DNA of 64,000 bases from Escherichia coli. GTDB lineage: Bacteria; Pseudomonadota; Gammaproteobacteria; Enterobacterales; Enterobacteriaceae. A program made the position numbers. Positions within the stretch are counted from its first letter, which is position 1. Every line of letters begins with the position of its first letter. Shown here piece by piece: positions 32,901 through 35,900 of the stretch. The stretch lies in NCBI RefSeq assembly GCF_045037415.1, contig NZ_CP173438.1, one strand, 5' to 3'.

Positions 32901-35900
32901 GTGCGGAAGATATTGTGCTGGCGACGCTTATCCTGCTGCTGATCTCCCCGGTGCTGTGCTGCATTGCGCTGGCGGTGAAACTGAGCTCACCGGGGCCGGT
33001 TATTTTCCGCCAGACTCGCTACGGCATGGATGGCAAGCCGATCAAAGTGTGGAAGTTCCGTTCCATGAAAGTGATGGAGAACGACAAAGTGGTGACCCAG
33101 GCGACGCAGAACGATCCGCGCGTCACCAAAGTGGGGAACTTTCTGCGCCGCACCTCGCTGGACGAATTGCCGCAGTTTATCAATGTGCTGACTGGCGGGA
33201 TGTCGATTGTCGGTCCGCGTCCGCACGCGGTGGCGCATAACGAACAGTATCGCCAGCTCATTGAAGGCTACATGCTGCGCCATAAAGTGAAACCGGGCAT
33301 TACCGGCTGGGCGCAGATTAACGGCTGGCGCGGCGAAACCGACACGCTGGAGAAAATGGAAAAACGCGTCGAGTTCGACCTTGAGTACATCCGCGAATGG
33401 AGCGTCTGGTTCGATATCAAAATCGTTTTCCTGACGGTATTCAAGGGCTTCGTTAACAAAGCGGCATATTGATATGAGCTTACGTGAAAAAACCATCAGC
33501 GGCGCGAAGTGGTCGGCGATTGCCACGGTGATCATCATCGGCCTCGGTCTGGTGCAAATGACTGTGCTGGCGCGGATTATAGATAACCACCAGTTCGGTT
33601 TGCTTACCGTGTCGCTGGTGATCATCGCGCTGGCAGATACGCTTTCTGACTTCGGTATCGCTAACTCCATTATTCAGCGAAAAGAAATCAGCCACCTTGA
33701 ACTCACCACGCTGTACTGGCTGAACGTCGGGCTGGGGATCGTGGTGTGCGTGGCGGTGTTTTTGTTGAGTGATCTCATCGGCGACTTGCTGAATAACCCG
33801 GACCTGGCACCGTTGATTAAAACATTGTCGCTGGCGTTTGTGGTGATCCCCCACGGGCAACAGTTCCGCGCGTTGATGCAAAAGGAGCTGGAGTTCAACA
33901 AAATCGGCATGATCGAAACCAGCGCGGTGCTGGCGGGCTTTACTTTTACGGTGGTTAGCGCCCATTTCTGGCCGCTGGCGATGACCGCGATTCTCGGTTA
34001 TCTGGTCAATAGTGCGGTGAGAACGCTGCTGTTTGGCTACTTTGGCCGCAAAATTTATCGCCCCGGTCTGCATTTCTCGCTGGCGTCGGTGGCACCGAAC
34101 TTACGCTTTGGTGCCTGGCTGACGGCGGACAGCATCATCAACTATCTCAACACCAACCTTTCAACGCTGGTGCTGGCGCGTATTCTCGGCGCGGGCGTGG
34201 CTGGGGGATACAACCTGGCGTACAACGTGGCCGTTGTGCCACCGATGAAGCTGAACCCGATCATCACCCGCGTGTTGTTTCCGGCGTTCGCCAAAATTCA
34301 GGACGATACAGAAAAGCTGCGCGTCAACTTCTACAAGCTGCTGTCGGTGGTGGGGATTATCAACTTTCCGGCGCTGCTGGGGCTAATGGTGGTGTCGAAT
34401 AACTTTGTACCGCTGGTATTTGGCGAAAAGTGGAGCAGCATTATTCCGGTGCTGCAATTGCTGTGTATTGTGGGGCTACTGCGCTCCGTGGGTAACCCGA
34501 TTGGTTCGCTGCTGATGGCGAAAGCGCGGGTCGATATCAGCTTTAAATTCAACGTATTCAAAACCTTTCTGTTTATTCCGGCAATCATCATTGGTGGGCA
34601 GATGGCGGGCGCAATCGGCGTCACGCTTGGCTTCCTGCTGGTGCAGATTATCAACACCATTCTGAGCTATTTCGTGATGATTAAACCGGTGCTCGGTTCC
34701 AGTTATCGCCAGTACATCCTGAGTTTGTGGCTGCCGTTTTATCTCTCGCTGCCGACGCTGGTGGTCAGTTATGCGCTGGGCATTGTGCTGAAAGGGCAAC
34801 TGGCGCTGGGGATGCTGCTGGCGGTGCAAATAGCCACGGGCGTGCTGGCGTTTGTGGTGATGATTGTGCTGTCGCGCCATCCGCTGGTGGTGGAAGTGAA
34901 GCGTCAGTTTTGTCGCAGCGAAAAAATGAAAATGCTTTTACGGGCGGGGTGAATGGTTGTTTTCGGTTCCGGCAACGGTTGCCGGATGCGGCGTAAAACG
35001 CCTTATCCGTCCTGGGGGGCTGGGCTTGGATCTTGTAGGTCTGATAAGACGCGTTAGCGTAGCATCAGGCACTGAATGCCGGATGCGGCGTGAACGCCTT
35101 ATCCGGCCTACGGTTCTGTGCTCGGATCTTGTAGGCCTGATAAGACGCGTCAGCGTCGCATCAGGCACTGAATGCCGGATGCGGCGTAAAACGCCTTATC
35201 CGTCCTACGGCTCTGTGCTCGGGTCTTGTAGGCCTGATAAGACGCGTCAGCGTCGCATCAGGCACTGAATGCCGGATGCGGCGTGAACGCCTTATCCGTC
35301 CTACGGTTCTGTGCTCGGATCTTGTAGGCCTGATAAGACGCGTCAGCGTCGCATCAGGCAAAAAACAGCAATGAAAACAACAAACACAGCCTCACCTGGC
35401 ATCAAATTTATGAGGAAAAAATGAAATTACTTATTCTGGGCAACCACACTTGCGGCAATCGCGGCGACAGCGCCATCCTGCGCGGCTTACTTGATGCCAT
35501 CAATATCCTCAATCCACATGCCGAAGTGGACGTGATGAGTCGCTATCCGGTCAGTTCTTCCTGGCTGCTCAACCGCCCGGTAATGGGCGATCCGCTGTTC
35601 CTGCAAATGAAACAACACAACAGTGCAGCGGGCGTTGTCGGGCGCGTTAAAAAAGTCCTCCGTCGCCGTTACCAACATCAGGTACTGCTCTCACGCGTCA
35701 CCGACACTGGCAAGTTGCGTAATATCGCCATCGCCCAGGGATTCACTGACTTCGTGCGCCTGCTGTCAGGTTACGACGCCATTATTCAGGTCGGCGGATC
35801 GTTTTTTGTCGATCTCTATGGCGTGCCGCAGTTTGAACATGCGCTTTGCACGTTTATGGCGAAAAAGCCGCTGTTTATGATTGGTCACAGCGTCGGCCCG

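Follow-up and report, generated by a model that had tools for sequence, protein, structure and literature searches.

BIME-2 elements are defined in the literature by y and z2 REPs that alternate in orientation, recur in tandem copies and are separated by short linkers. The IHF site is a property of BIME-1, where it lies in the L linker of a single-copy y + z1 pair. Among BIME-2 elements, REP325 is a 12-hairpin array situated between co-transcribed genes, where the upstream mRNA is stabilized and the downstream gene is attenuated ~8-fold. Its attenuation is partly bicyclomycin-sensitive, REP325 fragments with two to four hairpins are not Rho-sensitive, and Rho dependence is found in the long array only; by analogy, this precedent suggests that many hairpins may be needed before attenuation appears. 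The nucleoid role of REP325 and naRNA4 is disputed, with the model of Qian 2015 on one side and a 2026 re-examination on the other. Within the colanic acid operon, REP insertions and deletions and a recombination (similarity) junction at wzxC-wcaK were already published by Iguchi 2011. The locus and the kind of repeat characterized here are therefore both already known: it is a BIME-2 at a site where REP polymorphism was described before.

We analyzed a window of 64,000 nt from Escherichia coli (contig NZ_CP173438.1). The upstream gene wzxC, encoding the colanic acid repeat-unit flippase (33474–34952, + strand; NCBIfam NF007773 equivalog at 832 bits and the RefSeq annotation of the identical strain SK1144), and the downstream gene wcaK, encoding the colanic acid pyruvyl transferase (35421–36701, + strand; NCBIfam TIGR04006 equivalog at 932 bits), are separated by an untranslated gap of 468 nt, in which four tandem units of ~96.5 bp occupy 34980–35360. 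Tandem Repeats Finder reports this same span with a period of 96, 3.9 copies, 92% matches and a score of 650, together with an alternative fit with a period of 193, 2.0 copies and 94% matches. In each unit, a Y REP is joined by a 19-nt linker to an inverted Z2 REP, and a linker of 5 nt then leads to the next unit; across the array as a whole, the linkers measure 19 nt and 5–6 nt. By pattern matching, four Y and four Z2 REPs were found with 0–4 substitutions each, in strict alternation, with every Y REP on the + strand and every Z2 REP on the − strand. The typing as Y and Z2 is based on alignment to REP325; the 'Z1' search pattern lies one base from Z2 and is non-discriminating. Tandem Repeats Finder and pattern matching thus agree with the initial annotation that a BIME array of REP pairs lies between wzxC and wcaK in the colanic acid operon. 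Its description of four nearly identical ~100-bp pairs is right in number and slightly generous in similarity, as pairwise identity among the units is 84–95% and unit 1 is the most diverged. The span it gave, 34955–35360, ends correctly but starts 25 nt too early, in flanking sequence that is not REP, as the first REP begins at 34980.

The 5′ flank of the array (34953–34979, + strand) follows the wzxC stop codon (TGA, 34950–34952, + strand) and contains GTTGTTTTC (34956–34964, + strand), which forms the left arm of an inverted repeat enclosing the entire array. The segment 34969–34985 (+ strand) holds a small competing hairpin, CCGGCAAC-G-GTTGCCGG. The hairpins of the eight REPs have energies of −14.8 to −21.9 kcal/mol each. 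Y REP 1 (34980–35015, +; RNA hairpin −15.6 kcal/mol) has a divergent tail, CCTGG for CCTAC, and Z2 REP 1 (35035–35071, −; mRNA-sense hairpin −15.2 kcal/mol) differs from the consensus by three substitutions. Y REP 2 (35077–35111, +; −21.3 kcal/mol) and Z2 REP 2 (35131–35167, −; −21.9 kcal/mol) match their consensus exactly. They are followed by Y REP 3 (35174–35208, +; −15.6 kcal/mol), Z2 REP 3 (35228–35264, −; −21.9 kcal/mol), Y REP 4 (35270–35304, +; −14.8 kcal/mol) and Z2 REP 4 (35324–35360, −; −21.9 kcal/mol), with which the array ends. The 3′ flank (35361–35420, + strand) is A-rich and unstructured with more C than G (A31 C13 G8 T8), and carries both GAAAACAAC (35373–35381, + strand), the right-hand partner of GTTGTTTTC in the bracketing repeat, and the wcaK Shine-Dalgarno sequence GAGG (35412–35415, + strand).

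The array is a textbook BIME-2 element, because it combines alternating Y and Z2 REPs, a period-96 tandem arrangement, short linkers, the lack of an IHF site and full-length alignment to the REP325 unit. Its position is extragenic, from the wzxC stop at 34952 to the wcaK start at 35421, and its copy number varies among strains, as is also typical of the class. A chance origin is excluded by the density of REPs (eight within 381 bp, compared to five solitary REPs across the remaining ~63.6 kb of the window), by the z-score of −10.1 for the whole-region RNA fold (−237 kcal/mol) and by the recurrence of the 468-bp intergenic length with 100%-identical flanks in other genomes. The K-12 RefSeq records list CDS features only at this locus, and no REP feature.

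We surveyed the alleles of this junction in two spread samples of complete E. coli genomes, 117 in total, using flank-only queries with 500-nt or 1200-nt flanks. The number of units ranged from 0 to 6, with intergenic lengths of 71, 179, 275, 371, 468, 564 and 661 bp, and the array was missing from 11 of the 117 genomes. K-12 has two units, O157:H7 has one unit with a degenerate Y, and the O25-type lineage of the window has four. The suggestion that copy number may differ between strains is borne out by this comparison, as it had been earlier by Iguchi 2011. An unrelated palindromic repeat was found at the wzxC-wcaK site in 275 genomes. The junction itself is present in ~4,670 genomes. Allele lengths differ in steps of 96–97 bp or 193 bp, the six-unit allele being the window allele plus one additional copy of units 3–4, and one clear mosaic, the Z135-1 allele, combines near-identical flanks with a breakpoint inside the array. 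Copy number would shift when units misalign during homologous recombination or slip during replication, perhaps with the aid of TnpA(REP). Across 10 alleles, the divergence of the left and right flanks is weakly discordant, with a Spearman coefficient of 0.58 that is inflated by misregistered 359-allele pairs, in which the right flank is misplaced. The array is a passenger repeat that varies by lineage, rather than a conserved part of the operon.

The 468-bp length was observed in 13 of the sampled complete genomes, two of them counted in both samples, with flanks 100% identical to those of the window, which rules out an assembly artefact. Nor would the open reading frames inside the array, such as 34957–35268 on the + strand (103 aa) and 35161–35361 on the − strand (66 aa) in a mechanical ORF list, be expected to code for proteins: they are made up of REP palindromes, they coincide with no PGAP CDS in any fetched allele, and they could not be maintained across alleles of 0–6 units. 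We regard the probability of either explanation, protein-coding frames or an artefact, as negligible.

In 77 other Enterobacteriaceae species, the wzxC-wcaK spacer is usually 14–40 nt long (median 30 nt; ≤40 nt in 48 of the 77), and the array is absent from most other genera. This short spacer indicates that the array was inserted and does not belong to the conserved operon. Where the spacer is longer, it contains REP, CCCTCTCCC-type or ERIC-like repeats. That three unrelated repeat families have repeatedly settled at one junction might be the result of selection for a structured element, rather than mere permissiveness.

Towards its distal end, the colanic acid operon, which is under RfaH/ops control, has a single sizeable non-overlapping gap, and the array lies in it. 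The array-bearing transcription unit has its RfaH antitermination signal, the ops element GGCGGTAGCGTG, as an exact match at 16087–16098 (+ strand; 0.07 chance matches expected), ~190 nt upstream of wza as positioned by the SK1144 annotation. Neither intrinsic-terminator-like nor promoter-like sites were found in 34700–35600 on either strand, and the last hairpin is followed on the sense strand by AAAAAA. When the region was folded at full length, the minimum free energy structure paired distant REPs as one giant hairpin and paired the 5′ flank with 35373–35381; we replaced it with a span-limited fold to represent the local hairpins expected during transcription. In the 0-unit allele, both bracketing arms join as a perfect 11-bp hairpin.

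Overall, the locus is probably best explained as a passenger BIME-2 array that is co-transcribed, that acts as a stabilizer of the upstream mRNA and at most as a weak attenuator of wcaK-wcaL-wcaM, and that is a candidate gyrase site. The configuration resembles that of REP325, with eight hairpins between wzxC and wcaK, no promoter or terminator pattern, and co-induction of the two genes in K-12. By the REP325 precedent, the array would be co-transcribed with wzxC and wcaK, and its mRNA would fold as eight stable hairpins of −15 to −22 kcal/mol each. These hairpins would block 3′-to-5′ exonucleases, so that the wza-to-wzxC part of the transcript would be stabilized, and any attenuation of the distal genes would be weak and dependent on copy number. 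High read-through would be expected from the combination of an RfaH-modified polymerase and a G-rich sense strand. At the DNA level, the array is a candidate gyrase site by analogy with other BIME-2 elements. Because the REP325 drop is ~8-fold, an array of eight hairpins could nevertheless attenuate beyond the strength that we assume.

A stronger effect on the distal genes was implied by the proposal that the array is a partial terminator modulating wcaK, wcaL and wcaM, which is unproven and, for the two-unit K-12 allele, partly contradicted. In MG1655, microarray induction of wzxC and wcaK is identical (log2 4.45 each), a fold-change for the two-unit allele as distinct from an absolute abundance or a 3′-end mapping. 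Induction declines gradually along the operon as a whole, and the drops of 0.8–0.9 from wcaK to wcaL and from wcaL to wcaM occur with no REP between these genes. The ops/RfaH signal suppresses Rho-dependent termination. Moreover, with a C/G of 0.86 the array is G-rich in its sense strand, which would load Rho poorly, and no U-tract follows a hairpin. On the other side, the window has eight hairpins compared to four in K-12, translation is uncoupled across the untranslated gap of 468 nt, the 3′ flank is rich in A and C (C/G of 1.6), and REP325 lowers its downstream gene with a Rho dependence confined to the long array. We consider it unlikely that expression of wcaK, wcaL and wcaM is significantly reduced relative to the upstream genes by Rho-dependent attenuation at the array, to a degree set by copy number; the available data give no sign that it strongly controls downstream genes. 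A more elaborate version, in which the unit number (0–6, or 0–12 hairpins) is a lineage-specific dial of WcaK pyruvylation, WcaL and WcaM relative to the upstream genes, acting through hairpin-number-dependent attenuation and mRNA stabilization that interact with RfaH, would account for the independent colonization by three unrelated palindromic repeat families in different genera as selection, and is rather improbable. The structured element downstream of the wzxC stop codon might also be thought to repress wzxC translation, its first REP stalling terminating ribosomes by the Liang-Rudd-Deutscher mechanism. The rule for such translational repressors (Liang 2015) places the REP fewer than 16 nt after the stop codon. 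At wzxC, the first REP stem begins 30 nt past the stop and the small non-REP hairpin 16 nt past it, making this explanation very unlikely.

The chief role of the array may instead lie in the DNA, as a strong gyrase site or a topological insulator taking up the supercoils that transcription of the ~20-kb operon generates. BIME-2 elements are enriched in gyrase cleavage sites, with a preference for y-type REPs and independently of transcription (Sutormin 2019), 70–77% of BIME-2 sites lie between supercoiling regions, and the array contains four Y REPs. Cleavage is limited to a subset of BIME-2 elements, however; the accessible part of the supplementary text of Sutormin 2019 does not name wcaK or wzxC, and the array is not required, as shown by its absence from 11 of 117 E. 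coli genomes and from most other genera. We hold this possibility to be doubtful as the chief role of the array. IHF binding, which the initial annotation had included, is a different matter. General statements in the literature attribute IHF binding to BIMEs, but the site belongs to the L linker of BIME-1, whereas the array consists of y + z2 REPs with 19-nt and 5-nt linkers, and the IHF consensus WATCAANNNNTTR is absent from 34953–35420 on both strands even with one mismatch permitted. The claim therefore fails for this BIME-2, and binding of IHF in the manner of RIB/RIP (BIME-1) elements is highly improbable. Equally improbable is that naRNA4-like nucleoid-associated RNAs arise from the array and, with HU, condense the chromosome, as in the original model of Qian 2015. 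Three junction units, each an inverted Y, a 5-nt linker and a Z2 (35038–35108, 35134–35205 and 35231–35301, − strand), match the Rfam family naRNA4 (RF02564) at full length with 67.4–72.9 bits, above the gathering score of 59.5. These matches are antisense to the operon, though, and the transcribed strand scores only 46–49 bits, below that threshold. The Rfam family amounts to a plain Y-Z2 REP pair, and the 2026 re-examination saw neither nucleoid compaction nor REP-REP contacts for REP325 itself.

As it stands, a textbook BIME-2 at a locus with known REP polymorphism is of low importance, beyond the corrected attribution of IHF binding. Every unit number from 0 to 6 is represented among the alleles, in operons that are otherwise similar. 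This convenient natural series could serve to test a recent proposal, that REP arrays terminate and stabilize transcripts in a copy-number-dependent manner, here under RfaH antitermination. The array is also a recombination or gene-conversion breakpoint adjoining the O-antigen region, and bears on how serotype-switching segments are delimited.

Compared to known systems, the array shares with BIME-1 (RIB/RIP) elements only a Y REP and an intergenic position; in BIME-1, a lone y + z1 pair surrounds a long L linker with its IHF site, an arrangement absent from the array, and this identity was ruled out by the z2-type REPs, the tandem copies and the missing IHF consensus. It has the same locus and repeat family as the K-12 and O157 elements of Iguchi 2011, differing in its four units from their two and one, respectively. 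From the BIME-2 family of E. coli, with its alternating y/z2 REPs, tandem copies, short linkers, intergenic location and strain-variable copy number, it differs in nothing essential, although its first unit is degenerate. REP325, at the naRNA4 locus yjdM-yjdN, is a six-unit BIME-2 with 12 hairpins where the wzxC-wcaK array has eight. The short linker is 5–6 nt here and 13 nt in REP325, the array linker being 6 nt shorter in the covariance-model alignment. Unlike REP325, the array lies in an ops/RfaH operon, and its orientation relative to transcription is the opposite, which counts against inference from REP325. Both are nonetheless multi-unit Y-Z2 arrays inside an operon, between two co-transcribed tandem genes, and the Rfam model derived from the REP325 locus aligns with the array units over its full length. 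By this analogy, REP325 would be the best experimental precedent for a combined role of the array as stabilizer and attenuator.

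The gap between wzxC (33474-34952) and wcaK (35421-36701), both assigned by NCBIfam equivalog models, holds a tandem array at 34980-35360 whose period is 96 bp (TRF: 3.9 copies, 92% matches, score 650); a 193-bp double unit present twice fits it equally well (94% matches). By pattern matching, four Y REPs (+) alternate strictly with four Z2 REPs (-), joined by linkers of 19 nt (GGTTCTGTGCTCGGATCTT and variants) and of 5-6 nt (CTGAA). Unit-to-unit identity is 84-95%, with unit 1 the most divergent, and no gene is annotated between wzxC and wcaK in SK1144, a RefSeq genome identical to the window. 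Outside the array, the 64-kb window has only five solitary REPs, including those at 6706-6745 (-), 13604-13643 (-), 55511-55548 (+) and 20043-20078 (+); the last lies in the wzc-wcaA gap of the same operon and is conserved according to Iguchi 2011. The array's 468-bp spacer recurs in all 13 distinct complete genomes sampled with flanks 100% identical to the window (two of the 13 appear in both of our samples). Because REPs are so few elsewhere and the spacer recurs, the array is neither a chance pattern nor an assembly artefact; the initial annotation located it correctly between the two genes, but set its start about 25 nt early, in non-REP flank. A 25-nt direct repeat of 80% identity (34920-34944 and 35415-35439, +; GAAAAAATGAAAATGCTTTTACGGG / GAAAAAATGAAATTACTTATTCTGG) joins the wzxC 3′ end with the wcaK start region, one copy on each side of the spacer, and may be a chance match.

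By published definition, BIME-2 elements combine inversely oriented y and z2 REPs, repeated in tandem with short linkers, at a copy number that differs between strains. BIME-1 elements have just one y and z1 pair, whose long L linker often contains an IHF site. We found every BIME-2 feature that is testable from sequence. The array is therefore a BIME-2, an already known kind of element at an already described polymorphic site, which sharpens its earlier assignment to the BIMEs at large. The IHF binding proposed with that assignment is wrong for this class and does not apply here, since no IHF consensus was found anywhere in the spacer with one mismatch allowed. The Rfam naRNA4 model, derived from the Y-linker-Z2 unit of REP325, aligns full length to three internal junction units (67-73 bits), whose short linker is 6 nt shorter than in REP325; these matches lie on the antisense strand of the operon, and the score for the sense strand is under threshold.

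We measured spacer length directly with flank-only megablast queries, avoiding interference from REPs elsewhere in the genomes, and pooled the counts from two evenly spread samples of 59 and 58 genomes (four in both). The spacers correspond to 0 units (71-72 bp, 11 genomes), 1 unit (~179 bp, 18 genomes, including all sampled O157:H7), 2 units (275 bp, 29 genomes, including all K-12 derivatives), 3 units (371 bp, 13 genomes), 4 units as in the window (466-469 bp, 15 genomes), 5 units (563-564 bp, 14 genomes) and 6 units (660-663 bp, 5 genomes), together with an unrelated repeat (161 bp, 9 genomes) and alleles with an internal truncation (145 or 359 bp, 3 genomes). The suspected difference between strains is thus borne out, at 0-6 units in the sampled genomes. 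It had been published earlier for this locus: Iguchi et al. 2011 described REP insertions and deletions between wcaK and wzxC, along with a sequence-similarity junction there, and BIME-2 copy number is known to vary locus by locus. Since the 13 genomes with identical flanks all share one spacer length, copy number is stable within clones and differs between lineages. For about 690 of the 5,426 complete E. coli genomes, even low-stringency blastn gave no wcaK match, so roughly 13% seem to be missing the distal part of the colanic acid cluster or more.

The allele sequences differ in several respects. The 6-unit allele is the window allele with one further copy of units 3-4, and the truncated alleles are deletions that take out part of a Z2 REP. 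In Z135-1 (locus L093, 501-775), a two-unit allele whose flanks differ from the window at 1/1000 positions, the first ~80 nt of the array match another allele family and the remainder is of window type, indicating a recombination or gene-conversion breakpoint inside the array. The 68-nt spacer of the 0-unit allele forms a perfect 11-bp hairpin on its own (GTTGTTGTTTT / AAAAACAACAAC). Diverged versions of its arms flank each occupied allele on both sides, where the predicted fold pairs them. Because it retains AGGCACTG, matching the Z2/short-linker junction, the 0-unit allele may be a secondary deletion rather than a pristine empty site. The 161-nt allele, seen in 17MR471 (locus L004, 501-661) with a different wcaK leader, contains a palindrome (CCCCTCACCCTAACCCTCTCCCC...GGGGCGAGGGGAC) from an unrelated repeat family; 275 of the 5,426 complete genomes have this allele, and repeats of that family occupy the wzxC-wcaK gap in many further genera as well.

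Across Enterobacteriaceae, WcaK loci were taken from 80 one-per-species representatives, with both genes anchored in 77. The median spacer is 30 nt, and 48 of the 77 species have 40 nt or less (15 nt in Enterobacter hormaechei). Various small palindromic repeats occupy the longer spacers: Escherichia and some Citrobacter have REP pairs; Pseudenterobacter, Pluralibacter, Lelliottia, Kosakonia, Phytobacter and Buttiauxella, among others, have palindromes of the CCCTCTCCC/GGGAGAGGG type; and one lineage, Enterobacteriaceae bacterium RIT691 (locus L031, 166-nt spacer), has an ERIC-like element (tccccaggagcttacttttgtaagtgactggggtgaacg). Such short spacers and differing repeats indicate that the array is an insertion into a permissive gap, not a conserved part of the operon. 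Selection for a structured element at this junction is possible; the accumulation of insertions is sufficiently explained by the neighbouring wcaJ/wzxC, wcaK/wcaL and wcaL/wcaM junctions, which overlap or nearly abut in the SK1144 annotation. E. coli NT1F34 (locus L094, 1198-1216) has an Enterobacter-like 17-nt spacer (ttatttaagaggccatt) in a divergent colanic acid cluster (81.9% identity over wzxC-wcaK), which suggests that its distal colanic acid genes came from another genus.

Two exact ops elements (GGCGGTAGCGTG) occur in the window, where 0.07 are expected by chance, at 16087-16098 (+), ~190 nt upstream of wza as placed by the SK1144 annotation, and at 40678-40689 (+), ~86 nt upstream of rfbB. 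They tag both operons, colanic acid and O-antigen, as RfaH-dependent units. Within the O25-type O-antigen cluster, one gene (window ~47645-48707, +; locus L012, 33193-34255) is listed in the SK1144 annotation as a frameshifted pseudogene ('hypothetical protein'). The wzxC-wcaK spacer contains neither a sigma-70-like promoter nor a hairpin followed by a U-tract; with ops upstream of wza, this pattern suggests that the array is transcribed within a long RfaH-type operon. Each REP is predicted to form an mRNA hairpin (-14.8 to -21.9 kcal/mol), the first stem lying 30 nt after the wzxC stop, farther than the <16 nt reported for REPs that repress translation (Liang 2015), and the whole 490-nt region to fold at -237 kcal/mol (z = -10.1).

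We infer that the array is chiefly a passenger repeat, the RNA copy of which would serve as an exonuclease barrier and, at most, as a weak attenuator with a strength set by copy number. RfaH antitermination at ops is well established and the sense strand is G-rich (C/G 0.86, compared to 1.17 antisense), which together disfavour strong termination. The proposed modulation of wcaK, wcaL and wcaM is not supported for the two-unit K-12 allele: in published data, after 60 min of colicin M, log2 induction in MG1655 falls gradually along the operon (wza 7.12, wcaJ 4.82, wzxC 4.45, wcaK 4.45, wcaL 3.63 and wcaM 2.71), with no step at the BIME.

Among known systems, gyrase cleavage is enriched in BIME-2 elements, mostly in y REPs, and these elements tend to sit between supercoiling regions. 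The main residual value of the array is its natural 0-to-6-unit allelic series, which could be used to test how REP effects depend on copy number in an operon under RfaH control. REP325, with 12 hairpins between yjdM and yjdN, stabilises its upstream mRNA, while the downstream gene is ~8-fold lower, partly through Rho; REP325 fragments with 2-4 hairpins are insensitive to Rho, and a role in nucleoid compaction, proposed earlier, was not reproduced. By analogy, a measurable effect of the 8-hairpin allele is possible, since it falls between the inactive 4-hairpin and active 12-hairpin REP325 constructs.
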